A program made the translations under genes and the position numbers. The notes under the pieces were generated by a model. That model saw only the letters and a list, made by a program, of their open reading frames with translations, was not told the DNA's origin and searched no databases. Positions 7,742-31,684 of a DNA stretch of 64,000 nt are shown here, in pieces. The stretch's first letter is position 1; every line of letters begins with the position of its first letter. Source of the stretch: a virus; IMG/VR virus record IMGVR_UViG_3300034691_000040, positions 1 to 64,000 of that record; one strand, written 5' to 3'.

Positions 7742-7755
7742 ATCCTGAGGAGGAT
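7742..7755 (+). promoter_or_regulatory. SD-occluding hairpin
   Basis: ATCCT-GAGG-AGGAT; overlaps the ATG at 7754. Confidence 0.7.
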
Positions 7756-8338
7756 GTCCGTGTTTGAAGAAAAAGAAAAGATTATTCAGGATTTCTCAAA
7801 ATACTGGGAAATGAATGATGAAGCACATCGGCTGAAACATTTCGGTAATGTGGAAGGATGTGCGCTTATCATCAACGATCGGGCTGACCTGCAGTTTGAT
7901 CACGTCATGATCACATACGCAGCTTTCTTCCATGATCTGTTTGCGTGGAGTCGTTATAATCACCACGAGATGAGTTCCCATTGGGTATTGACCACAGATT
8001 ACCCACTGATCTCATTTCTTCCAGCTGGTGATAAGAAAATGTTGGCAGATGCCTGCCTTCAACACAGGGCTTCTTTTAAAGGTGAGTTTAGTAGCAAGTT
8101 TTCTGAGTTAATAAACGCAGCGGATCGTGAGATACCTGGTAATGTTCCAGCCATGATTGAGCGAGCTGTTCAATATCGGATGGCCCGAGGGTTTACGCGA
8201 GAAGAATCGTTAGGTCCTGCCGTTGCTCACATTGTCGATAAATTCTCAGCTAATGGCTATGCGCGCTATCCGCAGATCTACCTGGATGTATTTGGCGATG
8301 AGTTGTTACAGCAGCGTCAGGATATTGCAAACCTGTGA
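7754..8338 (+). CDS. HD-domain phosphohydrolase
   Basis: H..H (AHRLKH), FFHDL, HHEMS, HRAS, AADRE motifs; GAGGAGG RBS. Confidence 0.85.
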   Translation: MSVFEEKEKIIQDFSKYWEMNDEAHRLKHFGNVEGCALIINDRADLQFDHVMITYAAFFHDLFAWSRYNHHEMSSHWVLTTDYPLISFLPAGDKKMLADACLQHRASFKGEFSSKFSELINAADREIPGNVPAMIERAVQYRMARGFTREESLGPAVAHIVDKFSANGYARYPQIYLDVFGDELLQQRQDIANL

Positions 8339-8344
8339 AACAAT

Positions 8345-8373
8345 GACGGTCACCTTCGGGTGACCGTCTATGC
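8345..8373. terminator. Bidirectional hairpin (TATG family)
   Basis: GACGGTCACC-TTCG-GGTGACCGTC-TATGC between convergent genes. Confidence 0.8.
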
Positions 8374-8380
8374 TGCTTCT

Positions 8381-8746
8381 TTATTTGTCATCTTCAGGAA
8401 TATCGACCATGCTGATCGTTTTGTTCTTATGGTCGTGAGAACAATCGCCCAGATAGATGAGGTTACCTTCACGGATGAAGAAGTGGCAGGTAAAAGGCCG
8501 TGGTGTGATAACCCCGCCTGCCATCAGGATATCGCGTTCCTCGTCCGTGATACGTCCAACGCCACTAAGTAACAGGCTAGGTGAGAAGGTCGGTTCCGTT
8601 ACACTGCCGTTCCAACCCCAGAAGGCTTGCTTATTCTTTTCATGTTCCAAGTACACGTTGTGCATCATCCTGCAGCCGGGGCAGAAGAAGCTCAATGTGT
8701 ACTCGTTTACCTGCTGCAAGATCGGCGAAAGCTGTCTGATTTCCAT
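8381..8746 (-). CDS. DUF6527-like Cys/His-rich protein
   Basis: FFCPGC..MH, WGWNGSVTEPTFSPSLL, CHFFIREG...YLGDCSH; start moved to the ATG at 8746 (GGGGA RBS). Confidence 0.7.
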   Translation of the reverse strand: MEIRQLSPILQQVNEYTLSFFCPGCRMMHNVYLEHEKNKQAFWGWNGSVTEPTFSPSLLLSGVGRITDEERDILMAGGVITPRPFTCHFFIREGNLIYLGDCSHDHKNKTISMVDIPEDDK

Positions 8747-8775
8747 TTGATATGTCCCCACCGGAGCTAAGTGAA

Positions 8776-9582
8776 ATGGATAAGAAGGATGAAGTTAAAA
8801 GACTGCTGGGTCTTGCGGTCAGAGATAAAGACTTAGGTCCGATGGTCCTCAAGAAGAATTTGAATGATTTGGTTTTGATTGAGCATGATGGGAAGAGTGT
8901 TGGTTTCGCTATCCCTCGTTTTGAAAAAGATGGTCATTGGCGTACAGGTCCTATCTTTATTGAACCTGGGTATCGTAAGAAAGGTATTGCCTCAGCATGG
9001 ATCACTGAGTTCTTTAAAGGTAAAAAAGGAAGAGCTTGGATCGAACCCCATAACCATGCCAGTCAAGGCGCGTTCTCGAAAGCTGGGTTTCATAAAACTA
9101 GTAAGGAGCTTAATACTTCCGGTGAGCATTTTCTTGAATACTCAGTTGAGTCATCAGCTACATCTGCCGAACACAGATTGATCGACTTAGCGCTCAAAGA
9201 TCCACGCTTGGGTCCTGCTGCGGTAACCACAGATCCTGATCAACTGGTCTGGGTGTATGATGACAACAAAAAGAAGGTGGGTTTCTTCACACCTAAGCAA
9301 GAACCAGATGGCCGGTACAGAACCGGTACCATCTTTATCGAACCTTCAGAACGCGGGAAAGGCTACGGCTCGAACGCTGTGAATTCGTTCTTTAATGGCG
9401 CTACCACACCGGGTCGTGCTTGGATCGAACCTAGCAATATCCCGAGTCAAACCATCTTTAAAAAGGCAGGGTTTTATAAGTCAGGTCGTCACACAATGTC
9501 GAAGACAACACCCAGACTGTTTGAAGAATGGATTAACAAACCAGAACCTCCATTAGTATCCCGACCAGTGCTTGGTTGGTAA
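8776..9582 (+). CDS. Tandem (two-domain) GNAT acetyltransferase
   Basis: Two homologous halves, each with IFIEP..R.KG (acetyl-CoA motif A) and RAWIEP.N..SQ..F.KAGF; GGAG RBS supports ATG 8776. Confidence 0.85.
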   Translation: MDKKDEVKRLLGLAVRDKDLGPMVLKKNLNDLVLIEHDGKSVGFAIPRFEKDGHWRTGPIFIEPGYRKKGIASAWITEFFKGKKGRAWIEPHNHASQGAFSKAGFHKTSKELNTSGEHFLEYSVESSATSAEHRLIDLALKDPRLGPAAVTTDPDQLVWVYDDNKKKVGFFTPKQEPDGRYRTGTIFIEPSERGKGYGSNAVNSFFNGATTPGRAWIEPSNIPSQTIFKKAGFYKSGRHTMSKTTPRLFEEWINKPEPPLVSRPVLGW

Positions 9583-9599
9583 AAAGATACATTATATGG

Positions 9600-9840
9600 G
9601 TAATGAATACAACCTGTTCATCTTGCTCGCTGGACAGGTTACTTGTGGTCGGGACGTTCCCTTCGACCTGGGTCATTGTCGTTCCTGGTCGTGTGACAGT
9701 GACTGCTGAGTATCACTTAGCCTATAAATCACTTAGTGTGGGAACGGAGTGCTTTATAGAGTGTGTGGTGCGTTGTGGTGCTGAAGGTGGGTTGGGGGAG
9801 TGAAAACATATCGGCAGGGCGCAAGCCCTGCCTTTATGCC
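9600..9840 (+). ncRNA. Candidate structured non-coding RNA A
   Basis: Five consecutive hairpins, a GU-rich tail and a terminator hairpin; TACATTAT upstream; strand inferred. Confidence 0.5.
9813..9840 (+). terminator. Terminator-like hairpin (TATG family)
   Basis: GGCAGGGC-GCAA-GCCCTGCC-TTTATGCC. Confidence 0.7.
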
Positions 9841-9853
9841 GTCTGTATTCGAT

Positions 9854-9880
9854 TTAACTTTTTTATAGTCACACATCACG
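9854..9880 (+). promoter_or_regulatory. Putative early promoter (27-nt motif)
   Basis: TTAACTTTTTTATAGTCACACATCACG, 26/27 identical to 26721-26747; both head + strand accessory operons. Confidence 0.75.
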
Positions 9881-9920
9881 ATCGTACTAAACCTATACCC
9901 CTACCCTAAAAGGATTTATC

Positions 9921-10295
9921 ATGTTTAACAAAAACGTTTTGACGCTGGTTGGATTAGGTGTCGCTGGTGCGATTATTGGCGGTCTGATCGGTCGCCATCT
10001 CGGCAAAACCATCGGTATGCTGCAAAAGGATATCAGCCTTCTAGACCGTCGTATCATCGAGCTTGAAGTCAAAGCCCTGGGTTCGCCGCCAATGGAAACC
10101 GTTAAGCAGCGAGAAGCATACGCTGCTATTGTCGTCCAGCTTCTTTCCGATAGGGTCCGTCAGTACCAAAGGGTTTTGCCAACTGGCGGTAACGAGAAGA
10201 TCCACACTCTGCGCACGCAGTTTATTGACGGTGAAATTACCACCGACGCATTTACAAACGGCCTTCTGTTTGACATTTACAGCAGCGCAAAATAA
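9921..10295 (+). CDS. Hypothetical protein with N-terminal transmembrane/Gly-zipper segment
   Basis: VLTLVGLGVAGAIIGGLIG hydrophobic segment followed by a coiled-coil. Confidence 0.7.
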   Translation: MFNKNVLTLVGLGVAGAIIGGLIGRHLGKTIGMLQKDISLLDRRIIELEVKALGSPPMETVKQREAYAAIVVQLLSDRVRQYQRVLPTGGNEKIHTLRTQFIDGEITTDAFTNGLLFDIYSSAK

Positions 10296-10312
10296 CGCAC
10301 GTATTTAACCCT

Positions 10313-10326
10313 GTTCTTTGGAGAAC
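10313..10326 (+). promoter_or_regulatory. SD-occluding hairpin
   Basis: GTTCT-TTGG-AGAAC, 4 nt before ATG 10331. Confidence 0.7.
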
Positions 10327-10330
10327 TCAC

Positions 10331-10672
10331 ATGCAATTCATCGATCTGATCCTGGTAACTGCTTACGTTGGTCTGGTGCTTTCTATCCAGACTAAAAGTT
10401 TCATCAAGCTTTATAACTCCGCTGATGGCGGTTTTATTCAGCGTTACAGCTGCGCTGTTGCATTCATCGTTACTACGCAATACCTACAGTTGAAAAATAA
10501 CGCAAAGCTTCGCCGTGGGTACATGACAGCCTTATACGTAGTGCCCTGCGCGCTCTGGCTGTTAGACCTGCACTATTGCCTGATCGCAAACGTGGTCTTC
10601 ATCGCTCAGGGTGTTCTCTACACCTATTTGGGCAAAGTGCTGTTTTACAAATTCACAAGCATCGCAGCTTAA
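10331..10672 (+). CDS. Small multi-pass membrane protein
   Basis: 113 aa with 3-4 hydrophobic segments. Confidence 0.7.
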   Translation: MQFIDLILVTAYVGLVLSIQTKSFIKLYNSADGGFIQRYSCAVAFIVTTQYLQLKNNAKLRRGYMTALYVVPCALWLLDLHYCLIANVVFIAQGVLYTYLGKVLFYKFTSIAA

Positions 10673-10684
10673 GGAACCAATGCC

Positions 10685-11017
10685 ATGTCTTCAGAAGCTA
10701 TCATCCGTGGTGTGTCGATTGTAGTCTGCGTTGCAGCTGCAGCATACACCTCTTACAAAATTGGTTCCTGGTTCGCTACTACTCGGCGTAAAGTTCACTA
10801 CGTCGAGGAGATCACCGTTGGGTTGATGCGACTCAAGTCGGGCGAGCCAGTCGGGGATGTAGAATCCCTCAAATTGCTGAGCTCGGACCTGGAGCAAATC
10901 ACTGAACAGTTGCAGAAGGTTGCCGAGAATTTCAGCTCTGTAACCGAAGAACAACTAATGCGTACAGTTGTACGTATCAGCAATCTGCATCTGGAATACA
11001 AGATCCCAAAAGAGTAA
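10685..11017 (+). CDS. Hypothetical protein with N-terminal membrane anchor
   Basis: GVSIVVCVAAAAY hydrophobic segment, then helical domain. Confidence 0.7.
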   Translation: MSSEAIIRGVSIVVCVAAAAYTSYKIGSWFATTRRKVHYVEEITVGLMRLKSGEPVGDVESLKLLSSDLEQITEQLQKVAENFSSVTEEQLMRTVVRISNLHLEYKIPKE

Positions 11018-11026
11018 CAGCATAAG

Positions 11027-11070
11027 CACCTACTGCGAGAGAGTCTCGCAGTAGGTGTCTCCTTTTTATT
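11027..11070 (+). terminator. Intrinsic terminator
   Basis: 14-bp stem CACCTACTGCGAGA / TCTCGCAGTAGGTG preceded by CATA and followed by T-runs. Confidence 0.8.
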
Positions 11071-11114
11071 TTCTACAAAAACGGATGTTCCTATAACTTT
11101 CGGAGCACGACAAC

Positions 11115-11894
11115 ATGAAATACTTACATCAAGATGATGCTAAACACCTAGAAATCATGGAGGGGTTTGCTAAAGGCCCCCTCACGATCGCTGAGCTGCT
11201 GATCAAGCGTGTCATTGCATTCTTCCATGGGTACGAGTACACTTCCGATAGCAGTGTCCATGCGGCCTGCTTGCAGGAAGAACTCCAGCTGCGTCAAGAG
11301 ATTGCAGACAGTGACCAGATCAATGCTGAAGTAAAAGCATTGGCGCTAAAGGCACTGAAAGACCATTTAGAATTTCCAGGTGGTCCGCTCGATCAACTGA
11401 AGTCTCGTTACCCTCGTGTGCAGCATGAAGGCATGGTGAAGTCAGGATTTGCGACACTGCTTCACAAACATGGTGATGCGTACATGGAACAAGTGATCGA
11501 ATACTTGCGTGATTTGGATGCTCTGATTAAAGAGCTTCCAGCCAATCAGGTCCCAGGTTACTTTGTCCATACGCCATCTACTCCTCATTGGAAGCAGATG
11601 CGCGAATATGCATTGTCCGATACCCCACCAACTAACCCTGTCTCATTCTTTGGGTGCATCCTCTCAGATGAGCTACAGGCTAAAGTAACGTCGTTCTTTG
11701 AGCGTAGCATCATCAGCGCCGAAGCGTGGCGTACAACGGTCTGTGAGAACGACCTGACCAGTGCTGCATCGGTAGGGGTAAGCTTCAAGATCGAATATGT
11801 GGCTGATGTACTCGCTCCTTCTAAGAACGAACCTGGATCTGCAACCTGGATCAATGTGAGTACTGAAGGTCGGCATTACAGCTTCTACGTTTGA
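11115..11894 (+). CDS. Hypothetical protein
   Basis: 259-aa ORF with GGAG RBS, flanked by terminators. Confidence 0.8.
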   Translation: MKYLHQDDAKHLEIMEGFAKGPLTIAELLIKRVIAFFHGYEYTSDSSVHAACLQEELQLRQEIADSDQINAEVKALALKALKDHLEFPGGPLDQLKSRYPRVQHEGMVKSGFATLLHKHGDAYMEQVIEYLRDLDALIKELPANQVPGYFVHTPSTPHWKQMREYALSDTPPTNPVSFFGCILSDELQAKVTSFFERSIISAEAWRTTVCENDLTSAASVGVSFKIEYVADVLAPSKNEPGSATWINVSTEGRHYSFYV

Positions 11895-12211
11895 CCACAC
11901 CCACGGTTCGCCGTGGGTGACCTCTACGCATCTCTTTTTTTTGTAGTGGCTAATTAATACTACTATGTATTACGAGTTCTTTTACAACCTAAAACTTTAA
12001 GCTAATCTTCACAGTAAGTCGTTTGTGCGACAGCTCCCTGTTGAAAGGCACTCTTACAGACCTCAGTCTGACTTAGGCTTTGTTCCTCGAACATAGTCGG
12101 CTTTCCAAACGATGCAATATACAACGTAAAGCATTCAAAGGACTCTTTGTGCTGACAACGCTTTCAATTGGTGCGCGCGTTTGGTCTGACCTAACACCCT
12201 TACAGGCAATT

Positions 12212-12237
12212 GGCTGACTTCGGTCAGCCTTTATGCT
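12212..12237 (+). terminator. Terminator-like hairpin (TATG family)
   Basis: GGCTGAC-TTCG-GTCAGCC-TTTATGC. Confidence 0.7.
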
Positions 12238-12257
12238 GCATTCTGTAATAGGTTGAT

Positions 12258-12287
12258 TTGTAAGAAGTTACTTCCCGTATCTATAAT
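12258..12287 (+). promoter_or_regulatory. Sigma70-like promoter
   Basis: TTGTAA-N18-TATAAT upstream of an ORF-free structured segment. Confidence 0.45.
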
Positions 12288-12293
12288 CTGAAT

Positions 12294-12515
12294 AGAAATT
12301 TCTCTCCAGGGCAGTTGTAGAGAATCTTCGGTTACCTAATCCTGTAACACCGAAGCGGGTATAGGTGAGATAAGCGTTCGGGCGTACGCTGGTTTCTAAA
12401 GGATAGTTTGACGCTTAGCGTTTAACCGTCAGCCACTTATGGGCGTAAGTGGCTGGTGGATGTGCGTTGGGGGTGGTGTAGAAAACAAGCACCCTTCACG
12501 GGGTGCTTTTTATGC
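12294..12515 (+). ncRNA. Candidate structured non-coding RNA B
   Basis: Several hairpins including CAGCCACTTA/TAAGTGGCTG, a GU-rich tail and a terminator at 12487-12515; no ORF of note. Confidence 0.5.
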
Positions 12516-12528
12516 CGTAATGAGATGG

Positions 12529-12532
12529 TATG
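12529..12532 (+). promoter_or_regulatory. Possible late promoter core (TATG)
   Basis: GGTATG context also at 359-362; TATG also at 34415 upstream of the capsid gene; TATG is the remembered phiKZ late-promoter core. The motif is short, so weak on its own. Confidence 0.35.
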
Positions 12533-12577
12533 TAGTCGCAGTGACTATATCCTACTTCTTAAGAAGGTATATGTATC

Positions 12578-13102
12578 ATGGCAAAGGTAAACCTCACACT
12601 CAGCGCCTCCGCTAACGTCCTGGCCCTGATCAATGCCGCCAACCCAGCGCTGAACGCAACCGATACCCAAGTTACTCTGGGTACTCCTTCGGTTGCTGCC
12701 GGTACTGGCGGCCGTAACACCAGCCTCATCGTTACCGCCGTCTCCAACCAAGGCTTCAGCGGCGAGCAGATCTTTGCTTACACCCGTCAAGCCCTGGCTT
12801 CCGGCGCCGCAATCGCCACTGCAAAAGCAGTGCCGTTCGCCATCGCTCCAGGCGACACCAACGCTCAGATTCTGACCAAAGCAGCCACCGCTCTGGGTCT
12901 GCTGGAATCGGAACTGACCCTCGCCAACATCGTTCAGCCTGTGAACGAAACCACCCCAGGTTCGGCCGATGTCGTGGCCAACGTGGCTAGCCTGCTGTAC
13001 ACCGGCACCTACGCCGCCACCCTGACCGTACCGGATGCAGACGTCCCTTTGGATGAAGCTGCGACCGTGACCGATCTGAGCGGTTTCGACGCAGAGGCCT
13101 AA
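12578..13102 (+). CDS. Tail-fibre/decoration family paralog (short class)
   Basis: FAYTRQAL core and C-terminal PLDEAATVTDLSGFD motif; strongly C-ending codons like the capsid gene. Confidence 0.75.
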   Translation: MAKVNLTLSASANVLALINAANPALNATDTQVTLGTPSVAAGTGGRNTSLIVTAVSNQGFSGEQIFAYTRQALASGAAIATAKAVPFAIAPGDTNAQILTKAATALGLLESELTLANIVQPVNETTPGSADVVANVASLLYTGTYAATLTVPDADVPLDEAATVTDLSGFDAEA

Positions 13103-13110
13103 GGGCTAAA

Positions 13111-13140
13111 CATATAGCCGGGAGCAATCCCGGCTATATG
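13111..13140. terminator. Hairpin (CATA...TATG family)
   Basis: Perfect 13-bp stem CATATAGCCGGGA-GCAA-TCCCGGCTATATG. Confidence 0.8.
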
Positions 13141-13215
13141 CCGCAAAGATGAAAGTGACAGTTTACATTTGACGCTTATTAGATAATACCACCCCAACCG
13201 CCCTGGAGTATTATC

Positions 13216-13839
13216 ATGTCTAAGATTGAGCTCATCAATATCCCTTACACACCAAGCCCTTTGGTTGTTAAGGTTACTCATGTACCAGAAGAGTTGAAAG
13301 ACCGTCCAGATCTGGAACATGCGTTTAAATACATTGTCGAGAAACTCGCCGTAGATGTTGGCGATACCTGGATGCCGACGGCGCTTCAAACCTATGGCGT
13401 ACCGGTGGCCGATAAATCAGGTGTTGATATGGCATTCTATTGCCTGCCAGAACCCGAAACCAAAACGATCAACGTCGTCGTTGCCGAAGTCAAAAACAAA
13501 CGTATTTCACGCACATTAAAAGAAATCTGTAAGCTCTGCTTTAAAGAAAAGCCAGTGCCGATAGCTAACATTAATCAGGTAGGCGTTGGGTTTGATCTTC
13601 TGATCTATGAACTGGATGAAGCAGGTCTAGAAGTGATCGATGCCTGGAAGCTGATTAACTTCACGATTCCTTATGGGTTGGATATTCCTTTGTCCTTTTC
13701 AAAGGACCGTAGTGTCCCAACATCTGAACATCGTCCGCTTTATAGCTTCCCGCTTGAAGGTCTGTTCTTCTCGCATGATGCCGTGCTTGATGAAGCTACT
13801 GACCTCCACCGTCTTGAATCACAAACCAAGGCAGGGTAA
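13216..13839 (+). CDS. Hypothetical protein
   Basis: 207-aa ORF with GGAG RBS. Confidence 0.8.
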   Translation: MSKIELINIPYTPSPLVVKVTHVPEELKDRPDLEHAFKYIVEKLAVDVGDTWMPTALQTYGVPVADKSGVDMAFYCLPEPETKTINVVVAEVKNKRISRTLKEICKLCFKEKPVPIANINQVGVGFDLLIYELDEAGLEVIDAWKLINFTIPYGLDIPLSFSKDRSVPTSEHRPLYSFPLEGLFFSHDAVLDEATDLHRLESQTKAG

Positions 13840-25625: not shown

Positions 25626-26159
25626 CTACACCGGAGGGGGTGCGTACGTCAAACCATCCATCTGCACATCCGGAATAGCAAAATAAAGATCGTTGCTATC
25701 ACGGATCAATTTTACAAGCAATGTGTCCTTATAGACCAACGATGCAGGTAACACTTGAATCAAGACATCCACCCCACCTTCATCATCCTGGATCTCGGGG
25801 AGGTTAAAGTCAATGATGCGGTCGGCAGTCAACTTTATCTGTAACCGCTCATTTAACTCTGGGAGCAGGTCGCTGATGAATTGCTTGCCGAACGGATCAA
25901 ACGTTAAATCGGTAACCCCGGCTTCTACAAACTTATTCAGGGGTACCCGGTTGTAGTAAAACGTTTGGCTACCGCGGTACTGATAGCCGGGTCTTGCAGT
26001 TGCTACGATCATGGTGTTACGGTTAATGTCCACAGTCGGCGTAAAGACCTGAGGGTTACCGAAACTTACCATTAAAGGATATAAACTTTTATTGCTGTTG
26101 TCGCGGCGGATCAGATCGATCAATACATCAATCTCATCGCGAGTATAATCAGTAGCCAT
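25626..26159 (-). CDS. Tail-fibre family paralog (short class)
   Basis: FYYNRVPL core; FAIPDVQMDGLTY end. Confidence 0.75.
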   Translation of the reverse strand: MATDYTRDEIDVLIDLIRRDNSNKSLYPLMVSFGNPQVFTPTVDINRNTMIVATARPGYQYRGSQTFYYNRVPLNKFVEAGVTDLTFDPFGKQFISDLLPELNERLQIKLTADRIIDFNLPEIQDDEGGVDVLIQVLPASLVYKDTLLVKLIRDSNDLYFAIPDVQMDGLTYAPPPV

Positions 26160-26184
26160 GACTTACGATCTCGTGAGGTGGGGA

Positions 26185-26673
26185 TCAATCCAATCCGTTA
26201 AGGACATTATTAGGGAACGCTACTGACAACTCCTCTATCGTTATTTCAGCGATAGATACAACCAGCTCACCCGTCCAAATTAAAGAATTACCAACCACCT
26301 TAATGGTAAAGAGGTCATCCTTAAATGTAAGTGATTCTATTTCACTGGCATGGATCACAAAGTTGTATTTGTTCTTCAGGGCAATCAGCAGACCAGCGCC
26401 GTTCCACGACTCCACCTGAACGCTAGGTAGCGTAATGCCGATATCTGCAAACGCTTGTTGCATATCCAAGCGGGTGTAATAGTAGACGTAACTGCCTTCA
26501 ACAAACTGAGTGTCGGCTGTGACGCCAACCATGGTGTTAGTGCCGCCTTCAAAATCCCCAGCCGTAGGGTCAGTGAACGTTAAGTCTTTTGCAGTCAACG
26601 TTACATTGAATTCGTCCAGGTAGCTCTGGTTTGTCGACACGATTAAATCGGTCAACATTTGCTTGTTGGTCAT
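26185..26673 (-). CDS. Tail-fibre family paralog (short class)
   Basis: YYYTRLDM core; AFPNNVLNGLD end; start moved to MTNKQML because the longer ORF overlaps the divergent promoter. Confidence 0.7.
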   Translation of the reverse strand: MTNKQMLTDLIVSTNQSYLDEFNVTLTAKDLTFTDPTAGDFEGGTNTMVGVTADTQFVEGSYVYYYTRLDMQQAFADIGITLPSVQVESWNGAGLLIALKNKYNFVIHASEIESLTFKDDLFTIKVVGNSLIWTGELVVSIAEITIEELSVAFPNNVLNGLD

Positions 26674-26720
26674 CGGGTTGTACCTGGGGAAGTTATCGAG
26701 TACATAAAAGAGCAGCATAC

Positions 26721-26747
26721 TTAACTTTTTTACAGTCACACATCACG
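26721..26747 (+). promoter_or_regulatory. Putative early promoter (27-nt motif)
   Basis: TTAACTTTTTTACAGTCACACATCACG, 26/27 identical to 9854-9880. Confidence 0.75.
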
Positions 26748-26767
26748 TACTTGAACAAACTCACCTT

Positions 26768-26781
26768 ATCCTTAGGAGGAT
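26768..26781 (+). promoter_or_regulatory. SD-occluding hairpin
   Basis: ATCCT-TAGG-AGGAT, 6 nt before ATG 26788. Confidence 0.7.
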
Positions 26782-26787
26782 TGGCAG

Positions 26788-27225
26788 ATGGTTAGCTTAC
26801 AGTTTACCAAATCCCTTGAAGCATTTAAAAACGTTGCGGCTATGACCAAGGCGTTTAGTAACATGGGACCTGTGTTGCGTAGAGAAGCGATTCTGTACGC
26901 GCAGCAATATTCGGAAAAAGTCGAAGTCGGGCGCAAGTGGGCTTGGACTGGCGAAAAGGGTACCAGTGTCATGGTCGGCGGTATCGAAGGACATGTACTC
27001 TTCGACAGTTCACTGAATGTCAAGATCTGCGATAACTATAAATCAACAGCGATTTATAAGCAGAAGCCGGACTTGCTGATCAATCTCTTGGAGTATGCCT
27101 TTTACGAAGGCTATCCAATGTTTGCCCTGATTGAAGCATTGGACAAACAAGTCCAGTGTCACGAACAAAATATCGATGGGTTTGTAAAGATCCACGAATC
27201 CCTCGTACGTTTACAATTGAGCTAA
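26788..27225 (+). CDS. Hypothetical protein
   Basis: 145-aa ORF, first gene after the promoter motif. Confidence 0.8.
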   Translation: MVSLQFTKSLEAFKNVAAMTKAFSNMGPVLRREAILYAQQYSEKVEVGRKWAWTGEKGTSVMVGGIEGHVLFDSSLNVKICDNYKSTAIYKQKPDLLINLLEYAFYEGYPMFALIEALDKQVQCHEQNIDGFVKIHESLVRLQLS

Positions 27226-27236
27226 TGGAGCCTATC

Positions 27237-27593
27237 ATGACTCACGTCAACATCACCGTAGATAATAACGACCTGGTTGTATACCTGGATAAAGATAAAC
27301 GTCCGGCCGGTATGCCAAAGGTCGGCACAGTGCCGCTGACTATTAAACCAGGCTCTGTGCGGGAACTGGTACAGGTCAGCGGCTTCATCCGCGTGTACGA
27401 CGATAAGCGCAGCCGCGCTGAGTTCGAGCAAGAACTGCGTCAACAGATCGAACGCCCAGGTGTGTTGCTTCAACTGTTTGGTGAACTGGGCGATAATCCA
27501 AGCACCAACAAGATGAATCCATCCATCCATACCCGTAAACAATCCGGTTGGCTGCGTCCAGGCGAGACGCCTAAATCTACAGCAAAGCAATAA
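27237..27593 (+). CDS. Hypothetical protein
   Basis: GGAG RBS supports ATG 27237 (MTHVNIT). Confidence 0.75.
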   Translation: MTHVNITVDNNDLVVYLDKDKRPAGMPKVGTVPLTIKPGSVRELVQVSGFIRVYDDKRSRAEFEQELRQQIERPGVLLQLFGELGDNPSTNKMNPSIHTRKQSGWLRPGETPKSTAKQ

Positions 27594-27609
27594 CCCCCGT
27601 AACACCAAC

Positions 27610-27623
27610 GTCCTTTGGAGGAC
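27610..27623 (+). promoter_or_regulatory. SD-occluding hairpin
   Basis: GTCCT-TTGG-AGGAC, 3 nt before ATG 27627. Confidence 0.7.
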
Positions 27624-27626
27624 CCA

Positions 27627-27974
27627 ATGAGCAAAGCTGCAGAGTCAAGATTGAAGAAGGCGGTATCCGAACTCAATTCGGATCTCGATATGTTAGCCAA
27701 GGTTTTGGGTTACCGCTGCCCTCTGTACGACATGATCACCACTCGTGATCGTGACTTTTTGAAAGTCAAAGTTGTAGTGGATGGTAAGCTTGCCACTATC
27801 CACTACACTTGGGAAAAGGAAGGGTTTGGTACCAATGCTCATTATCTGATTGACGAAGTCAGGCGATTTACATTCGAGCGGTTCTGTGAGACGCTCTACG
27901 GCGATGTAGTTAAAAATACAGCCTGCCGTTCAGCCCATCAGGGAATAAGTATTGACGCTGATTTCAGCAAATAA
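27627..27974 (+). CDS. Hypothetical protein
   Basis: 115-aa ORF, GGAGG RBS. Confidence 0.75.
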   Translation: MSKAAESRLKKAVSELNSDLDMLAKVLGYRCPLYDMITTRDRDFLKVKVVVDGKLATIHYTWEKEGFGTNAHYLIDEVRRFTFERFCETLYGDVVKNTACRSAHQGISIDADFSK

Positions 27975-27981
27975 AATAACT

Positions 27982-27995
27982 GTCCTAAGGGGGAC
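27982..27995 (+). promoter_or_regulatory. SD-occluding hairpin
   Basis: GTCCT-AAGG-GGGAC (one G-U pair), 5 nt before ATG 28001. Confidence 0.65.
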
Positions 27996-28000
27996 TTATA

Positions 28001-28570
28001 ATGCGTATCATCAAACTCGAAAAGAAACCTGGTCAGTCGCAACGTCTGGTCGTCAGCGAAAACGGCAGCAGTCTGGTTCTGACTCTGCCATGCGGTGTTA
28101 GCTTTAACGAAGAAAGCGGTCGCTTCAATACCTGGATCATCAACGAAGATACCAAGGGTTGGAGAAATAAAAGCTGGTCGTCTAAAAAGCACGGTGCTGT
28201 AACAGCGTTTGAAAGTGCGGTGGAAGCCCGTGAAGATTCACTCGATTTCCTGCTTAACCGCCGCCTGCTGCCTCGTATCCGTAAAGAGTACGAGTACCGT
28301 GAGATCAACGGTCTCATCATCGTCCGCGATCCGTTGGAGAAGAAGAACCGTTACTTCTCTTCACTTAAAGCTGCGGTCGAGTTCAACACGACGATCACCA
28401 AACAGTGGATTGATACGTACCTGTTTGATAAGGCATCGATGATCCAGCACCAGAACGGTAAACAGTTCCGGCGGCTGGCGCTTTTGGATAAGGGTATCTT
28501 TGAAGAACACTACATCAAACCCGTTATTGCCAATACCATGCTGCAAGACATCTCGGAGACTCGTCACTGA
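28001..28570 (+). CDS. Putative AP2-domain DNA-binding protein
   Basis: GVSFNEESGRFNTW...NKSWSSKKHG..TAFESAVEARE fits the AP2 pattern GV.F....W......K.FS..KYG...A...A...R. Confidence 0.55.
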   Translation: MRIIKLEKKPGQSQRLVVSENGSSLVLTLPCGVSFNEESGRFNTWIINEDTKGWRNKSWSSKKHGAVTAFESAVEAREDSLDFLLNRRLLPRIRKEYEYREINGLIIVRDPLEKKNRYFSSLKAAVEFNTTITKQWIDTYLFDKASMIQHQNGKQFRRLALLDKGIFEEHYIKPVIANTMLQDISETRH

Positions 28571-28716
28571 TGCTACCGACAAACGAGGAACTCGATAAGC
28601 GCGCCCGTGATCGTGAGTCACAGGAAATCATTAACAAAACTATCTTCTGCCTAAAGCTGATTTCACTCTCTGGCGTTGTAGTGCTGATCATTCAAATAGT
28701 CAAGGAGTTTATCTAA
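28570..28716 (+). CDS. Small membrane protein (48 aa, not in ORF track)
   Basis: MLPTNEELDKRARDRESQEIINKTIFCLKLISLSGVVVLIIQIVKEFI; coupled by TGATG and TAATG overlaps. Confidence 0.6.
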   Translation: MLPTNEELDKRARDRESQEIINKTIFCLKLISLSGVVVLIIQIVKEFI

Positions 28717-28916
28717 TGGCCCGGCGTAAAGAACCCATTGATATCTTTCTTTGGATATTGACGGCGCTGTTTGTGATCCTGTTGAACATCACAGTGGCTT
28801 TTAATAGACCGTCTCAGGAAGAGCTTGCGTGCGCGTCTAACGCGAGCCGCACCAGTGCCCTGCTCCTTGCCTCACCTCAGGTCGCAAACCACAAGTACCG
28901 CTGCTACACGCGCTAA
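28716..28916 (+). CDS. Small membrane-anchored protein
   Basis: IFLWILTALFVILLNITVAF segment and two Cys in the C-terminal part. Confidence 0.65.
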   Translation: MARRKEPIDIFLWILTALFVILLNITVAFNRPSQEELACASNASRTSALLLASPQVANHKYRCYTR

Positions 28917-28920
28917 CAGA

Positions 28921-28953
28921 CATATAGCCAGGGCACAACGCCCTGGCTATATG
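28921..28953. terminator. Hairpin (CATA...TATG family)
   Basis: Perfect 14-bp stem CATATAGCCAGGGC / GCCCTGGCTATATG, T-rich downstream. Confidence 0.8.
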
Positions 28954-28965
28954 CTTTCTTTTTAT

Positions 28966-28979
28966 ATTCCTAGGGGAAT
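28966..28979 (+). promoter_or_regulatory. SD-occluding hairpin
   Basis: ATTCC-TAGG-GGAAT, 5 nt before ATG 28985. Confidence 0.7.
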
Positions 28980-28984
28980 TGACA

Positions 28985-29506
28985 ATGGAACGTGTTACTA
29001 AAACCTTGTACGGCTATACTTTGCTGAAAGTACCCGAAGGTGAATTCAGTGAAGCGTTTTACGAATATCTACTAAAAGAACATTACGGGCTCCGTAGCCG
29101 TGTTAACTTTCTTATTGAACACAAGAAAGATGGTCGTGTTGCATTTAGCAGCGCCATTGAAACCACCGTACGTAACATGCTGCAACGGTTCAGTCGCGGC
29201 CAGACTGTGAAGTGTGTTCAGACTCTATTCCCAACGGCAAGGCGGTTTCACAATAACGTCAACGTTTGGGCTGTGATTGAAGAACCGCCACACAATGTCT
29301 TAACGTTGGAGATCCTCACGCTGGGTAAGTGGTTTGATAAAACCGCCGAGAAGCACAAATGTAAGCGTCTAGCCGAAAGACATGTTCGGGCCGAGCCGCA
29401 TGGCTACCATGCGGTAACTCGGTTCCTAAAAGACGCTGTAAAGACACGTCCAGATCTGATTGACTTTATCAATCAGCACTCAGGTAAGTGGCAAGTTCAA
29501 ATTTAA
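28985..29506 (+). CDS. Hypothetical protein
   Basis: 173-aa ORF from ATG 28985. Confidence 0.75.
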   Translation: MERVTKTLYGYTLLKVPEGEFSEAFYEYLLKEHYGLRSRVNFLIEHKKDGRVAFSSAIETTVRNMLQRFSRGQTVKCVQTLFPTARRFHNNVNVWAVIEEPPHNVLTLEILTLGKWFDKTAEKHKCKRLAERHVRAEPHGYHAVTRFLKDAVKTRPDLIDFINQHSGKWQVQI

Positions 29507-29508
29507 CT

Positions 29509-29522
29509 GTCCTAAGGAGGAC
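29509..29522 (+). promoter_or_regulatory. SD-occluding hairpin
   Basis: GTCCT-AAGG-AGGAC, 3 nt before ATG 29526. Confidence 0.7.
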
Positions 29523-29525
29523 TAC

Positions 29526-29903
29526 ATGAACGTATTTGACAAAGCTCTGAAATCATTTAACACTCGGGCAGTGTTGCAGAAAGCGGCATTAGGTAAGCTT
29601 GAAGGTAGTTGGGTAAATATAGCTGGTCAGAACGTACTACCTCCGGTGTCATGGGACGTTGTCGTAGGTCCCGGCATTGCGTTGACGTATGACGATGCGT
29701 TCAGAATATTGCACGTTCACCTCTTCGTTAAATTGAAGAATGATGGTCATGGGCACATTGGACTGATCTCCGGCCGGACCGATCCGCGATACCACAGCCG
29801 GTCTCTCAGAAAACTTGTCGCTCCGTATATCCAGGAGTTACTGGTTGAGTGCGCTGATCAACTCGCCCCTTACTTCGGCGAAAAATTTAATACCACGTTC
29901 TAA
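29526..29903 (+). CDS. Hypothetical protein with shared MxVFDKALKSFN leader
   Basis: AAGGAGG RBS supports ATG 29526. Confidence 0.75.
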   Translation: MNVFDKALKSFNTRAVLQKAALGKLEGSWVNIAGQNVLPPVSWDVVVGPGIALTYDDAFRILHVHLFVKLKNDGHGHIGLISGRTDPRYHSRSLRKLVAPYIQELLVECADQLAPYFGEKFNTTF

Positions 29904-29910
29904 GGAGAAC
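29897..29910 (+). promoter_or_regulatory. SD-occluding hairpin
   Basis: GTTCT-AAGG-AGAAC; contains the upstream TAA stop. Confidence 0.7.
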
Positions 29911-29913
29911 ATA

Positions 29914-31470
29914 ATGAAAGTATTTGATAAAGCTTTGAAGTCGTTCAACCAGAAAGCGCTTCTTCCAACTTACCGTCTGCGCAACCAAGCACTCCTCACG
30001 GTCTTCGCTCAGGAAATCAAAGATCTCCAAAGCAAGAAAGGTATTGTTCGCAAACCTTTAAGGCATCATAGCCCGTTACAACCAGCCGATCATGAGCCGG
30101 TGGCCATTCAACCGGCCATTGCGCCGATGACCCTCGGTGGTTTACTTGAGGCGTCTGCGGCGTTTCCTGTATCGGCAGCGCGGCAAGAGATGTTTGAAGG
30201 TCACCGCAAGCCCTTCGATCGTTCTGAAGGGTGTCCTGCATTCTCCATGCCAGAGCCGTTGGTTGTCGTTGACGAAGCCCCGGCCGTTGAGAAGAACGTG
30301 CTGGAATACGCACAGCGTAAAGTCCAGTTGTACCTGGGGCAGCTCGGTAAGCATGTTGACATCTACGATCGCATCACAGCACAGACCCGCCTCCTGCCTG
30401 ATTCAACACTGACCGGCGATTTCCTGATCAATATTCAGATTGACGGAATAGTCGTCGACGACCTGGCAAGGCATTTTCGTCGTGGCCAAATCGGAGGTGT
30501 GGTCGGTAAGCGGATTCGGGCTTTTACAGCTTTGGTAGCGTATACCTTGGAAGAAGGCGGTTTCCGCTTTTCGAAGATCGAGCAATTGGTCAAAGAACTG
30601 AAGCCAATTGTCGTTGATGAAATTCCGCATTCCGCAGAGGAGGTTAAAAAACCATTTACCTTTGCTGATCTTGGCCGTCGGGCTCTTCGCCCCTTGAGTC
30701 ATGTCGAAGAACAGTTCGGCTGGATGACGGATGGTAGCGAAGTTCACCAAGCCATTTACGATGACTTGAAAGCTATCGGGGCTAGCGTCGGCTGGATTTG
30801 GAACGTTGATTTCCTTTACAGAATTGCGCCCTTTGGCGAGAGTGGGTATTTTGTAAAGGTCATGAGTCCGGTCAATCTGTGTAAGATGTCTGAGGAGATT
30901 TCTACTGTAGGCGATGAGCGGTTCAAACGCGATATGGTACACGATAAGCAAGTTGCATTTGCTTCTGTTCTTGTTCAAGCTTTGGATGGGAGTGTGTACT
31001 CTGCTAGAAAGATCCATCAGCTGGCGGAAGAGATGCGTAAAAAGGCCTTGGTGGAAAACCCAAAGGCTGAAGTGCATCTTGTAAGACCTACTGAAGTTGC
31101 CGTGTTATTGAAAGACATCATCGGCGGTAAATACCAAAGCTGTGATGTCTTCACCAACAAGGTCGTGTTTGACATTTACCCGTCGCAGTTTGCGGCCGAG
31201 CATACGAACCCGCTCACTATTCAAATATCTCTTCCGTACGTGGGGCTTTACACCCTGTTCAAAGAAGAGATGCTGAACGAGCTGGCGAGGTATCCCGGGG
31301 CGAACGCAGTGGTGGTTGAACAAATTAGTGCGCAAGACCCAACTGAGCATAATCGGCATGTCATCCACCTGATGGGTAGTTCGATCGAAAAGGTTCGCCA
31401 GATCGAAAAGCGGGTAACCGTCATCGACGCCGAGCTGTACGAATACATCACTCCCGCTACTTCGCTCTAA
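29914..31470 (+). CDS. Hypothetical protein with shared MxVFDKALKSFN leader
   Basis: 518-aa ORF from ATG 29914 (AAGGAG RBS). Confidence 0.8.
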   Translation: MKVFDKALKSFNQKALLPTYRLRNQALLTVFAQEIKDLQSKKGIVRKPLRHHSPLQPADHEPVAIQPAIAPMTLGGLLEASAAFPVSAARQEMFEGHRKPFDRSEGCPAFSMPEPLVVVDEAPAVEKNVLEYAQRKVQLYLGQLGKHVDIYDRITAQTRLLPDSTLTGDFLINIQIDGIVVDDLARHFRRGQIGGVVGKRIRAFTALVAYTLEEGGFRFSKIEQLVKELKPIVVDEIPHSAEEVKKPFTFADLGRRALRPLSHVEEQFGWMTDGSEVHQAIYDDLKAIGASVGWIWNVDFLYRIAPFGESGYFVKVMSPVNLCKMSEEISTVGDERFKRDMVHDKQVAFASVLVQALDGSVYSARKIHQLAEEMRKKALVENPKAEVHLVRPTEVAVLLKDIIGGKYQSCDVFTNKVVFDIYPSQFAAEHTNPLTIQISLPYVGLYTLFKEEMLNELARYPGANAVVVEQISAQDPTEHNRHVIHLMGSSIEKVRQIEKRVTVIDAELYEYITPATSL

Positions 31471-31477
31471 GGAGAGC
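31464..31477 (+). promoter_or_regulatory. SD-occluding hairpin
   Basis: GCTCT-AAGG-AGAGC; contains the upstream TAA stop. Confidence 0.7.
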
Positions 31478-31479
31478 TC

Positions 31480-31677
31480 ATGGACAAGGTTTATACTGGC
31501 CGTAAAGAAATCGTCGAGGGTATTGTTGAACTCTTTGACCAGGGTTTGATGCACGAACAGATGTCCGACATCCTTGTCGTTCTTGAAGACGACCTGCAGG
31601 ATAAAGACACCATGCAAATCACTGATGATGGTGTCATCACTCTGCGTACTCGCGGTCTCAGCATCGGTACGTTCTAA
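31480..31677 (+). CDS. Small acidic hypothetical protein
   Basis: 65-aa ORF, AAGGAG RBS. Confidence 0.7.
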   Translation: MDKVYTGRKEIVEGIVELFDQGLMHEQMSDILVVLEDDLQDKDTMQITDDGVITLRTRGLSIGTF

Positions 31678-31684
31678 GGAGAAC
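31671..31684 (+). promoter_or_regulatory. SD-occluding hairpin
   Basis: GTTCT-AAGG-AGAAC; 19-nt identity (ACGTTCTAAGGAGAACATA) with 29895-29913. Confidence 0.7.

Follow-up and report, generated by a model that had tools for sequence, protein, structure and literature searches.

Why should the start codons of some genes in a giant phage be preceded by a small RNA hairpin that takes up their own Shine-Dalgarno (SD) sequence, and is this hairpin a signal at all? The question is raised by a stretch of 64,000 nucleotides, called the window below. Its phage is a distant phiKZ-like (chimallivirus), an uncultured giant or jumbo phage; in the genome comparisons it is denoted G000, with a contig of 126,847 nt, and G001 is a complete relative. 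For the uncultured genomes the gene starts were called heuristically, with 134 starts in the G000 set.

The first-pass annotation had described ten such hairpins close to start codons, and all ten 14-nt elements were found at the positions given in Table 1, with a spacing of 2–6 nt to the start codon. Nine of them are perfect 5-bp Watson-Crick stems, the exception being 27982 with one G.U closing pair. Three extra hairpins lie on the contig beyond the window, at 100619, 119630 and about 121719, and no copy was found on the minus strand of the contig. In 9/10 native contexts the hairpin is within the minimum-free-energy fold, the one at 31464 lying outside it. The hairpin at 31671 is enclosed by an outer 8-bp helix, such that ATG 31691 is buried too (−15.8 kcal/mol, z −3.7), and the stem at 7742 can lengthen to 7 bp, spanning 7740–7757. 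The latter precedes a gene of 192 aa (phrog_3921), for which position 7754 had been proposed as the start. This ATG falls within the stem itself, and the most likely start is instead GTG 7760, 6 nt past GGAGG.

Table 1. Coordinates of the ribosome-binding-site (RBS) hairpins and of the promoter- and terminator-like elements in the window.
Element	Position	Strand	Context
RBS hairpin ATCCT-GAGG-AGGAT	7742..7755	+	in minimum-free-energy fold, z −2.0
Promoter-like motif, second copy	9854..9878	+	heads unit with genes 9921 and 10331
RBS hairpin GTTCT-TTGG-AGAAC	10313..10326	+	precedes ATG 10331, 113-aa ORFan, second gene downstream of the motif at 9854
Promoter-like motif TTAAC-T6-AC-AGTCACACAT-CA	26721..26745	+	putative promoter of the early type, 23 nt upstream of the 26768 hairpin
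RBS hairpin ATCCT-TAGG-AGGAT	26768..26781	+	precedes ATG 26788, 145 aa; first gene of accessory operon
RBS hairpin GTCCT-TTGG-AGGAC	27610..27623	+	precedes ATG 27627, 115-aa ORFan; no orthologue in G001
RBS hairpin GTCCT-AAGG-GGGAC, one G.U pair	27982..27995	+	precedes ATG 28001, 189 aa
Terminator-like GC hairpin, then TATG	28921..28953	+	divides accessory cluster into two halves; directly followed by the 28966 hairpin
RBS hairpin ATTCC-TAGG-GGAAT	28966..28979	+	precedes ATG 28985, 173 aa
RBS hairpin GTCCT-AAGG-AGGAC	29509..29522	+	precedes ATG 29526, 125 aa
RBS hairpin GTTCT-AAGG-AGAAC	29897..29910	+	precedes ATG 29914, 518 aa; upstream TAA inside loop
RBS hairpin GCTCT-AAGG-AGAGC	31464..31477	+	precedes ATG 31480, 65 aa; upstream TAA inside loop
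RBS hairpin GTTCT-AAGG-AGAAC	31671–31684, nested structure 31662..31693	+	precedes ATG 31691, 96 aa
Terminator-like hairpin	31995..32025	.	closes accessory cluster, between convergent genes

One explanation would be that the hairpin is an artefact of the SD consensus, in that CTAAGGAG by itself yields two inner pairs and the remainder is due to chance or to common descent of duplicates. Indeed, CTAAGGA(G) occurs also in many genes without a hairpin, genes 29526 and 29914 are alike in their first 17 codons, and the sites at 10313 and 100619 are identical over 22 nt. However, among the 134 called starts the Watson-Crick stem around the NNGG loop has a length of 0, 1, 2, 3, 4 and 5 bp in 78, 32, 10, 4, 0 and 10 cases, respectively, that is, the counts spike at 5 bp and vanish at 4 bp, and the spike is also present in G001. 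A scan that does not use gene calls gave ten 5-bp sites, compared to none in the reversed-sequence control. With the inner core as given, complementarity of the three outer pairs exceeds expectation about 19-fold: at YY-NNGG-RR cores with an ATG, all three are Watson-Crick in 10/34 sites where 1/64 is expected (binomial p 8e-11), and the complementarity of the outer pairs at core sites amounts to 10/34, 15/69 and 8/72 against this same expectation. Sites in which four of the five positions are paired are at chance level, G.U cases apart, which means that selection acts on the pairing and not on a decaying sequence motif. The carrier proteins are, moreover, otherwise unrelated.

The relatives point in the same direction. 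In an alignment of 33 sites, which were selected for pairing, both sides change in four of the five pairs. Two comparisons avoid this circularity. Namely, the orthologues of gene 28001 in eight genomes, chosen by protein homology, all have the SD hairpin, with the stem GUCC/GGAC swapped for GACC/GGUC, and in genomes G005–G007 positions 2 and 12, which the search pattern did not fix, are T/A in 20 cases, A/T in 16, A/A in 5 and T/T in none (Fisher p 2.4e-7). Orthologues in G000 and G001 retain the hairpin at a protein identity of only 31–55%; the counterpart of the 10313 hairpin in G001 reads GTCCT-TTGG-AGGAC, and a partial orthologue of the gene at 29897 has ATTCC-AAGG-GGAAT, corresponding to two compensatory pair changes. 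The earlier proposal of compensatory changes and of selection on RNA structure is thus borne out, and the SD-consensus artefact is refuted by the stem-length spike, the outer-pair excess, the orthologue conservation and the G005–G007 covariation; what probability it retains is negligible. Since relatives retain the hairpin with compensating base changes, we conclude from the sequences that it is a real signal, presumably one of translation, whose pairing is under selection. Single copies are nevertheless dispensable, since in strain L025 (about 85% identical) only 3 bp are left of the one at 31464.

The form of the hairpin differs across the clade. G000, G001 and G002 have a 5-bp stem and an NNGG loop, the cultured Pseudomonas phage pPa_SNUABM_DT01 has stems of 5–7 bp, with GenBank gene starts 2–5 nt downstream, and four further genomes, a sister clade, have a 4-bp stem and a GWGGA loop (class b), with 10–19 copies per genome in the larger three. 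Neither form was found in a phiKZ-species phage or in PCH45. The fixed geometry noted in the first-pass annotation therefore holds inside one subclade but not across the clade. What is conserved is the sequence of the SD: the second stem pair is C-G in 33/33 sites, GG is in the loop every time, and all invariant or near-invariant columns belong to GGAG or its complement, with no other nucleotide conserved.

This pattern bears on the possibility that the hairpin is the address tag of a regulon, where an RNA-binding protein (from phage or host) or a ribosome modified by the phage recognizes the C-G-closed GG/GGA loop and represses, activates or times the translation of the 10–19 tagged genes jointly. 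Several observations are in line with such a reader, such as the single geometry per subclade, the one orientation on one strand, the strict register, and the invariant C-G and near-invariant U-A pairs. In the GWGGA form the first loop G is nearly invariant although it is dispensable for rRNA pairing, the stems are weak, so that an extra binder would matter, and operon-first genes are tagged as well, as the earlier annotation had held and as gene 26788 illustrates. Furthermore, phiKZ is known to produce ribosome-binding proteins early in infection (PMC11849849).

CsrA/RsmA sites are short hairpins that overlap the SD and have GGA as part of their loop, and CsrA targets usually contain two or more GGA sites. 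The present hairpins resemble them in the short C-G-closed stem over the SD and in the loop GGA (GWGGA in the sister clade) or GG (in the window), but there is one site per leader, and within the window the A of GGA takes part in the pairing. The T4 RegB and RegA regulons are similar in that many early or accessory messages are controlled jointly at their start regions, with RegB cutting GG|AG in SD sequences (PMC3014915). However, RegA operators are AU-rich and unstructured, and RegB depends on GGA being unpaired, with structure acting as an inhibitor (PMC3014915). No CsrA homologue was found in six related genomes and no RegA or RegB homologue in two, so these earlier suggested analogues are not supported. 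Of ten small proteins that are co-distributed with the tag, none has an RNA-binding domain. As the invariant bases are all accounted for by GGAG and its complement, and the DT01 stems vary freely in length and sequence, the sequences do not require a reader protein, and we consider a trans-acting one, and with it this regulon reading, less probable than the reading preferred below.

The hairpin could also be an RNA processing or stability element, being either the target of an endoribonuclease that cuts GG|AG where loop and stem meet and so inactivates early messages, or a protective stem against decay of the SD or of a processed 5' end. Its 3' half, GGAGRAY, coincides with the seven bases that open the strong RegB/S1 consensus GGAGRAYARAA (PMC3014915), GGAG is found in the start regions of the accessory genes, nearly all cistron junctions of the cluster have a hairpin, and RNA contigs from a peat metatranscriptome start at 26765 and end at 28970, adjoining two hairpins. 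Yet contig ends cannot reveal RNA ends, and those at 27166, 28327 and 29589 are away from hairpins. Considering also that the known nuclease, RegB, lacks a homologue in the two genomes searched and disfavours structured sites, and that a 5-bp stem is a weak barrier to exonucleases, we find this option improbable.

We now turn to the genes that carry the hairpin. They make up about one in ten genes and are small, fast-evolving, non-structural ORFans; Pfam and PHROG searches of the carriers gave no significant function. The reported absence from structural genes is supported, with no hairpin among the roughly 47 genes of the minus strand, for the most part virion genes, versus 12/87 on the plus strand (p 0.008). 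A G001 orthologue exists for 6/12 carriers, which are also shorter, compared to 102/121 other genes. Several carrier operons have at their head an AT-rich promoter-like motif (T-rich/AGTCACACAT), similar to the early promoters of the phiKZ type (PMC8244752). The same motif is located ahead of hairpin genes at 100564 on the contig and at 32922, 33664, 203593 and 247167 in G001, and this resemblance suggests that the carriers may be early genes. The terminators of phiKZ carry a conserved hairpin plus TTAT (PMC10914365), and near the terminator-like hairpin that closes the cluster an RNA contig ends at 31992.

In the cluster at 26.7–32 kb, the three hairpin-less genes overlap the upstream stop codon or keep their SD within the upstream gene, and the genes that lack an orthologue in the other genome, nine in number, all have the hairpin. 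The latter finding could mean that the near-identical 14-nt repeat is chiefly a recombination junction, with microhomology for the exchange, deletion and reordering of accessory cassettes, as for the PeSL motifs in phages of the T4 type (Arbiol et al. 2010, PMC2839356). There, a repeated stem-loop motif is located between small ORFans of hyperplastic regions, and insertions, deletions and reshuffling have their junctions at the motif. Here, homology blocks between G001 and G002 begin or end at hairpins, where the genes also stand in a permuted order; G000 and G001 have promoter, leader and hairpin in common and then diverge, the homology at 26768 spanning promoter and hairpin and ending there. 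Single-cassette indels are seen among near strains: L025 is without the cassette 31691–31981, the junction being the TAA in the loop, and landfill strain X3 seems to skip 29507–29896, which is the cassette of the 29509 hairpin, as well as 28979–29502. Recombination would, however, need identity among the copies and not self-complementarity, and the copies in G000 and DT01 differ yet pair with themselves. BLAST blocks necessarily end at shared repeats, which in part predetermines the coincidence, a length of 14 nt would be very little for exchange by homology, and the exact register with SD and start codon indicates translation. PeSLs, moreover, act on transcription through a sigma70-type early promoter and a terminator stem-loop (PMC2839356), while the hairpin repeat is a much shorter ribosome-binding site that covaries instead of conserving its sequence. 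A chiefly recombinational role is thus unlikely.

The first-pass annotation considered the SD to be locked in the hairpin. The calculated stem energies are −2.2 to −6.7 kcal/mol, to be compared with an SD:anti-SD duplex of −9 to −13; they refer to 37 °C, and in the peat that is the source the stems would be more stable. The mean stem energies in three genomes are about −3.9, −4.6 and −4.4 kcal/mol, in spite of lengths that range over 5–7 bp, the value for most class-b sites is −4.5 kcal/mol, and in G000 and G001 a sixth pair is avoided (1/26 sites, p 0.005). The SD:anti-SD duplex of the carriers is −9.8 and −10.4 kcal/mol, whereas the remaining genes have −6.5 and −6.7 kcal/mol (p 8e-5 and 9e-9). 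This means that the weak stem is offset by an unusually strong SD, bringing the net energy to about the level of an average gene. In G000 the folding energy of the whole region is nearly equal for carriers and other genes, and since the predicted SD accessibility is barely lower for carriers (0.45 vs 0.51, p 0.1), a purely thermodynamic effect may be small. According to these models the stability is tuned, and "locked" is too strong a word.

In zipper-type RNA thermometers (fourU), a weak short hairpin has a pyrimidine run that pairs with the AGGA of the SD, with non-canonical or weak pairs, and they control heat-shock or virulence genes singly. The hairpins here share the pyrimidine run, but have canonical pairs and constitute a multi-copy phage tag. 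The RBS hairpins of T4 e, soc, 49 and I-TevI also have the SD and/or AUG in an mRNA helix, which lowers 30S binding and gives cis-acting temporal or quantitative control (PMC3014915). Those helices are, however, long and specific to one gene each, and a late promoter within the helix relieves them by giving a shorter transcript (PMC3014915), whereas the present ones are uniform (13–18 nt), occur at 10–19 genes, have no room for an internal promoter, and amount to about 4 kcal/mol. Another likeness is to the start-associated sequence (SAS) of mycobacteriophages in Cluster K (Pope et al. 2011, PMC3203893), a short repeat that holds the SD core 3–7 nt ahead of start codons, in 11–19 copies per genome and one orientation, in the non-structural half of the genome only, often with the upstream stop codon inside, and kept across subclusters before unrelated genes, with symmetric outer bases (GGG...CCC). 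The SAS is a conserved 13-nt GGGATAGGAGCCC with 3-nt symmetry and no covariation reported, unlike the hairpin, where the sequence varies and 4–7 bp of pairing are kept, and its phages are actinobacterial siphoviruses, unrelated in lineage and hosts to the phiKZ-like jumbo phages.

Finally, the reading that we prefer, with a probability of roughly 0.5, is that the hairpin is a cis-acting, self-contained translation-start module of the accessory genes frequently exchanged in one phiKZ-like clade. The block ends at hairpins, the permuted gene order and the single-cassette indels described above accord with it. Each carrier gene has an unusually strong SD of the UAAGGAGG type, whose 3' part (AG and the 2–5 following bases) would pair with the complementary 5' arm and whose first GG (GGA in the sister clade) would be left exposed in the 4–5-nt loop. 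The folding cost of about 4–4.5 kcal/mol would roughly cancel the surplus SD strength, and the exposed GG would nucleate the pairing to the 3' terminus of 16S rRNA, thereby displacing the 5' arm. At hairpins that contain or adjoin the upstream stop codon, a terminating ribosome could open the stem, and the translation of the two genes would be coupled. In this way the local hairpin would give the start site a single defined state of moderate accessibility, irrespective of the flanking sequence, and such a neighbour-independent start site would suit genes that are acquired, lost and rearranged in the form of cassettes.

The first-pass annotation had placed ten small hairpins over Shine-Dalgarno (SD) sequences between 7742 and 31684, and every one of them was found where claimed, 2-6 nt upstream of a start codon. 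The 5-bp stem is perfect at nine of the ten sites, while that at 27982 contains one G.U pair. At 7742 the hairpin stands, but GTG 7760 is a more likely start than the assigned ATG 7754. The window is the initial 64 kb of a 126,847-nt contig (G000), which holds three extra copies further on (100619, 119630 and ~121719), giving a total of 13, with none on its minus strand.

Gene starts in G000 were called by a simple heuristic based on codon bias and the SD. Over the 134 starts, the Watson-Crick stem around an NNGG loop has 0 bp in 78 cases, 1 in 32, 2 in 10, 3 in 4, 4 in none and 5 in 10, and a scan independent of gene calls returned ten 5-bp sites in G000 and none in the reversed sequence. Ordinary genes here often read CTAAGGAG, which provides the two inner pairs without selection, and the pairing test was therefore conditioned on that core. 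Given the core, all three outer pairs are complementary at 10 of 34 sites, compared to an expected 1/64 (p 8e-11), and sites with a single mismatch occur at chance level. These results show thus that the hairpin reflects selection for pairing and is not a decaying sequence motif. The consensus is GTCCT-WWGG-AGGAC, with variable, covarying arms, and Rfam gave no family in the window at gathering score. It is important to point out that the within-class permutation test and the pair counts on one of our alignments (A1) are biased, the sites having been picked for pairing. We rely instead on the stem-length spikes, the mismatch counts, the core-conditioned outer pairs and, from the relatives discussed below, the orthologues of gene 28001 and the free-position pattern of the distant clade.

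The 941-aa virion protein of the window matches only phiKZ-like jumbo phages, the top match being the cultured Pseudomonas phage pPa_SNUABM_DT01 (DT01) with 31% identity. Together with the gene identities from PHROG (see table), this identifies G000, on sequence grounds, as a distant, uncultured chimallivirus. It is contained in sequencing runs of peat and landfill samples. Relatives were located through the helicase adjoining the hairpin cluster. They include a complete genome of 248,574 nt with terminal repeats (G001; helicase 88% identical, 108 reciprocal best hits with a mean identity of 65%), a 14-kb fragment (G002), and a more distant clade with helicase identities of 54-56%. A near-identity DNA search of cultured-phage records with the hairpin gene cluster returned no matches. 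Between 14397 and 26739, 16 minus-strand genes stand in a row, most of them detectable paralogues of each other (PHROG 1037/2935/3589, a virion structural family). Their G001 orthologues are 37-77% identical, and none of the 16 has the ribosome-binding-site (RBS) hairpin.

Features of the window, the remainder of its contig (G000) and the related genome G001
Feature	Position	Strand	Basis or remark
phiKZ-type major head protein	34541-36820		PHROG match
DnaB-like helicase	32260-33807	minus	PHROG match
Polymerase	38127-39770		PHROG match
Large virion protein paralogue family	14.4-26.7 kb	minus	PHROG match
Promoter-like motif	window 9854-9878, 26721-26745	plus	TTAAC, T-run, AGTCACACAT
Promoter-like motif, weaker copies	window 4868, 53416	plus	
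Promoter-like motif	contig 100564, 101888	plus	
Promoter-like motif, G001	32922, 33664, 47967, 118127, 125569, 172625, 203593, 230855, 247167	plus	
GC-rich terminator-like hairpins	window 9813-9845, 28921-28953, 31995-32025; contig ~100530, ~119590		with (T)TATG(C)

The stem-length spike recurs in G001, where 304 starts give one 4-bp, thirteen 5-bp and one 6-bp stem, and G002 has six copies within 4.5 kb. In DT01 the design is the same, with stems of 5-7 bp whose outer pairs vary freely, located 2-5 nt upstream of GenBank-annotated starts, each of a small hypothetical gene. The fixed geometry that had been proposed (5-bp stem, 4-nt loop) holds thus for G000, G001 and G002, but not for the clade as a whole. 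We also considered that the distant clade lacks the hairpin. This was ruled out, as the hairpins of this clade have 4-bp stems and 5-nt loops (class b). When positions 2 and 12 of the class-b pattern are left free, 41 sites are found in three of its genomes (G005-G007) and none with the reversed-pattern control, the two positions being T/A at 20 sites, A/T at 16, A/A at 5 and T/T at none (Fisher p 2.4e-7). Sites were listed for G007 (16, plus strand), G005 (9 credible) and the fragment G004 (4), each upstream of an ATG or GTG whose open reading frame (ORF) is nearly always small. In all eight genomes from which protein homology yielded an orthologue of gene 28001, the SD of that gene lies in a hairpin, as GTCCT-NNGG-RGGAC in three and as GACC-/GTCC-GNGGA-GGTC/-GGAC in five. 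These orthologues and the class-b covariation bear out the compensatory pair changes noted earlier.

Small hairpins of any kind are not generally enriched over SDs; the excess above the reversed-sequence control is confined to exactly one geometry in each subclade. Neither KTN4, of the phiKZ species, nor the Serratia phage PCH45 has the element. An apparent enrichment in KTN4 is most likely due to its GC-rich terminators, in which TTATG provides the 'ATG'. The element is thus real and clade-wide, with strong statistical and phylogenetic support.

The hairpin marks a particular set of genes, called carriers here. In G000 it precedes 12 of 87 plus-strand genes and none of ~47 on the minus strand (p 0.008). 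No replication or transcription gene is tagged, and no virion gene, as the first-pass annotation had observed for structural starts. Carriers are short (median 135 aa, versus 240 aa for other genes), and a G001 orthologue is present for 6 of 12, versus 102 of 121 other genes. Where there is one, the hairpin is kept through compensatory changes although the proteins are merely 31-55% identical, the median for other genes being 71%. Pfam and PHROG searches with ten carrier proteins gave only phrog_3921, of unknown function, and sub-threshold noise. The carrier proteins are mutually unrelated, except for a 17-residue N-terminus common to 29526 and 29914.

As for hairpin strength, the stem energies lie between -2.2 and -6.7 kcal/mol, averaging about -4 to -4.6 kcal/mol in G000, G001 and DT01 at differing stem lengths, and most class-b sites are at -4.5 kcal/mol. 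A sixth pair is avoided in G000 and G001 (present at 1 of 26 sites). The SD:anti-SD duplexes of the carriers amount to -9.8 and -10.4 kcal/mol, versus -6.5 and -6.7 kcal/mol for the remaining genes, and the hairpin cost roughly cancels this excess. In the native context the hairpin is part of the minimum-energy fold for nine of the ten sites, and only at 31671 does it lie in a strong extended helix, in which the AUG is buried as well. Carriers and other genes of G000 hardly differ in how strongly the start region folds as a whole or in how accessible the SD is predicted to be. With such weak stems on stronger SDs, the earlier description of the SD as "locked" is too strong; it is better described as a strong SD half-masked to average net strength.

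We infer a function in translation, and the most economical reading of the sequences is a cis-acting start module. In this proposal, the local stem would half-mask a strong SD, the 16S 3' end would find a toehold in the loop GG, and cassette-shuffled genes would obtain a defined, context-independent start of moderate strength. With a stop codon in or near the hairpin, a terminating ribosome would open the stem and couple the two genes.

A serious rival is that a dedicated factor reads the hairpin. The strict register would fit such a reader, as would the first loop G of the sister clade, which is conserved without an rRNA-pairing reason, and on weak stems a binder would matter. However, all invariant or near-invariant columns of a 33-site alignment reduce to GGAG or its complement, and the DT01 stems are freely variable. 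Nor do the proteins suggested as analogues appear to be encoded: neither the RegB profile PF10715 nor the RegA profile PF01818 has a match above threshold in G000 or G001, and no CsrA-family protein was found in G000, G001, G005-G007 or DT01. Pfam was searched with ten small proteins out of the 27 of G001 that occur in DT01 and are absent from KTN4 and PCH45. None has an RNA-binding domain, the sole match being an SH3 domain associated with DNA polymerases.

CsrA/RsmA sites expose GGA in a hairpin loop overlapping the SD, and a leader usually has at least two of them to accommodate the dimer. The sister-clade loop GWGGA resembles this; in the window the loop has only GG, the A being paired. 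The leaders are C/A-rich with a single hairpin. RegA operators are AU-rich, unstructured and located over the AUG, while the present element is structured and upstream of it. RegB needs an unstructured GGAG and structure protects from cleavage (PMC3014915), whereas here the AG of GGAG is part of the stem. RNA processing as the primary function is less likely for the same reason. The fuller proposal, a translational-regulon address in a clade of nucleus-forming jumbo phages, whose reader would bind the C-G-closed GG(A) loop and switch 10-19 host-takeover genes, the hairpin serving also as a joint for swapping promoterless cassettes, we consider unlikely.

An anti-RBS small RNA was considered as well. 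A scan for 8-mer complements in the ORF-free gaps of G000 and G001 gave no convincing partner, the matches being reverse strands of ordinary SDs or terminator-like hairpin stems near contig 123.7 kb. Two ORF-free stretches of the plus-strand block, 9583-9850 (338 nt) and 11895-12577 (683 nt), had been put forward as candidate non-coding RNAs; no 8-nt complement to the hairpin was found in them. Another ORF-free stretch, contig 123365-123850, is conserved in G001 (56489-56898). Its plus strand is dense in GGA, AGGA and GGGGA around a perfect hairpin, followed by two tandem hairpins with stems formed by SD-like GGAGGT and 16S-like ACCTCC. The stretch may be an RNA of the sponge type, rich in GGA, or one that mimics the SD.

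The element is of a known kind in a new form. The closest described one is the start-associated sequence (SAS) of Cluster K mycobacteriophages, whose function is unknown (PMC3203893). Placement, copy number, orientation and gene class are alike: G000 has 13 copies of the hairpin and G001 ~19, every one of them plus-strand, 2-6 nt ahead of a start and never at a virion gene. However, SAS is a conserved 13-nt sequence, GGGATAGGAGCCC, in an unrelated phage group, and not a covarying hairpin with variable arms. The T4 hairpins at genes e, soc, 49 and I-TevI follow the same principle, an SD and/or AUG paired in the mRNA, but they are long, gene-specific and relieved by promoters (PMC3014915). Such relief, through a shorter transcript initiated within the helix, does not apply here: only 4 nt separate the 5' arm from the SD and, at 26768, there are 23 nt between the end of the promoter-like motif and the hairpin.

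We now turn to the behaviour of the genes as cassettes. Between G000 and G001, nucleotide homology spans from the promoter to the first hairpin and ends there. Between G001 and G002 the block edges are at hairpins and the gene order is permuted, although an alignment is bound to stop wherever a repeat is shared. Nine genes of the 26.7-32 kb cluster and its G001 counterpart lack an orthologue, and all of them are tagged; the three untagged genes of the cluster either overlap with the stop codon of the gene before them or have an SD that lies within that gene. A near strain locus (L025, 85-94% identical) lacks gene 31691-31981 (96 aa), the junction being the TAA in the hairpin loop, and its hairpin at 31464 has decayed to 3 bp. 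Compared with window 31678-31986, this deletion is flanked by TTCTAA and TTCATTAA, and its junction is of the microhomology type. A landfill strain seems to skip 29507-29896 and 28979-29502, one cassette each. The adjoining 125- and 518-aa proteins share their first 17 residues (29526-29576 and 29914-29964; 13 identical, MxVFDKALK...), and it may be at this repeat, combined with the RBS hairpin, that the landfill strain lost the first gene. No relatives of the 518-aa ORFan were found among viral contigs. Apparent junctions at a repeated motif recall PeSL cassettes, but these consist of a sigma70-like early promoter and a terminator stem-loop, whereas the present element is the RBS itself, with separate promoter-like and terminator motifs. 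A recombination joint as the primary function is less likely, because what is conserved is self-complementarity and not identity between copies.

The promoter-like motif lies 25-60 nt upstream of gene starts and heads the G000 units starting at 9921, 26788 and 100637 and four tagged first genes of G001. Of the nine motif-proximal genes of G001, four are tagged, versus 15 of the 295 others (p 0.001). It resembles phiKZ early promoters in its T-rich tract and conserved core, with leaders of 30-45 nt (PMC8244752), and is probably the early (virion RNA polymerase) promoter of this clade. By this resemblance, "early" is a reasonable inference for the tagged genes. Some of the remaining ones stand behind terminator-like hairpins with TATG. 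These match the phiKZ terminator motif, a hairpin plus TTAT (PMC10914365), and contain the late-promoter word TATG (PMC5312081); several are palindromic through CATA...TATG. Peat metatranscriptome contigs span 26765-31992, although such contigs cannot show RNA ends, strand or level. A metatranscriptome contig that covers the major head gene starts at 34476, straight after Illumina adapter sequence, which points to a discrete RNA end 65 nt before the ATG. This position is directly 3' of the palindrome GTAGTCGACTAC, where TATG is absent.

Regulation after transcription has hardly been explored in phiKZ-like phages; promoters, terminators and small RNAs are mapped in those phiKZ and 201phi2-1 transcriptome papers that were consulted, and none of them mentions RBS structure. 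The hairpin is a simple, countable mark of the accessory genes of eight or more related genomes, with a form that shifts between subclades. Since DT01 is cultured, the function of the hairpin is directly testable. A dedicated reader, if it exists, would imply a new translational regulon. For uncultured relatives, the hairpin aids annotation, as it pinpoints true start codons and flags accessory, probably early, genes. Finally, a portable, context-insulated start module, if confirmed, would explain how shuffled ORFan genes remain expressible, and it could serve as a design part.
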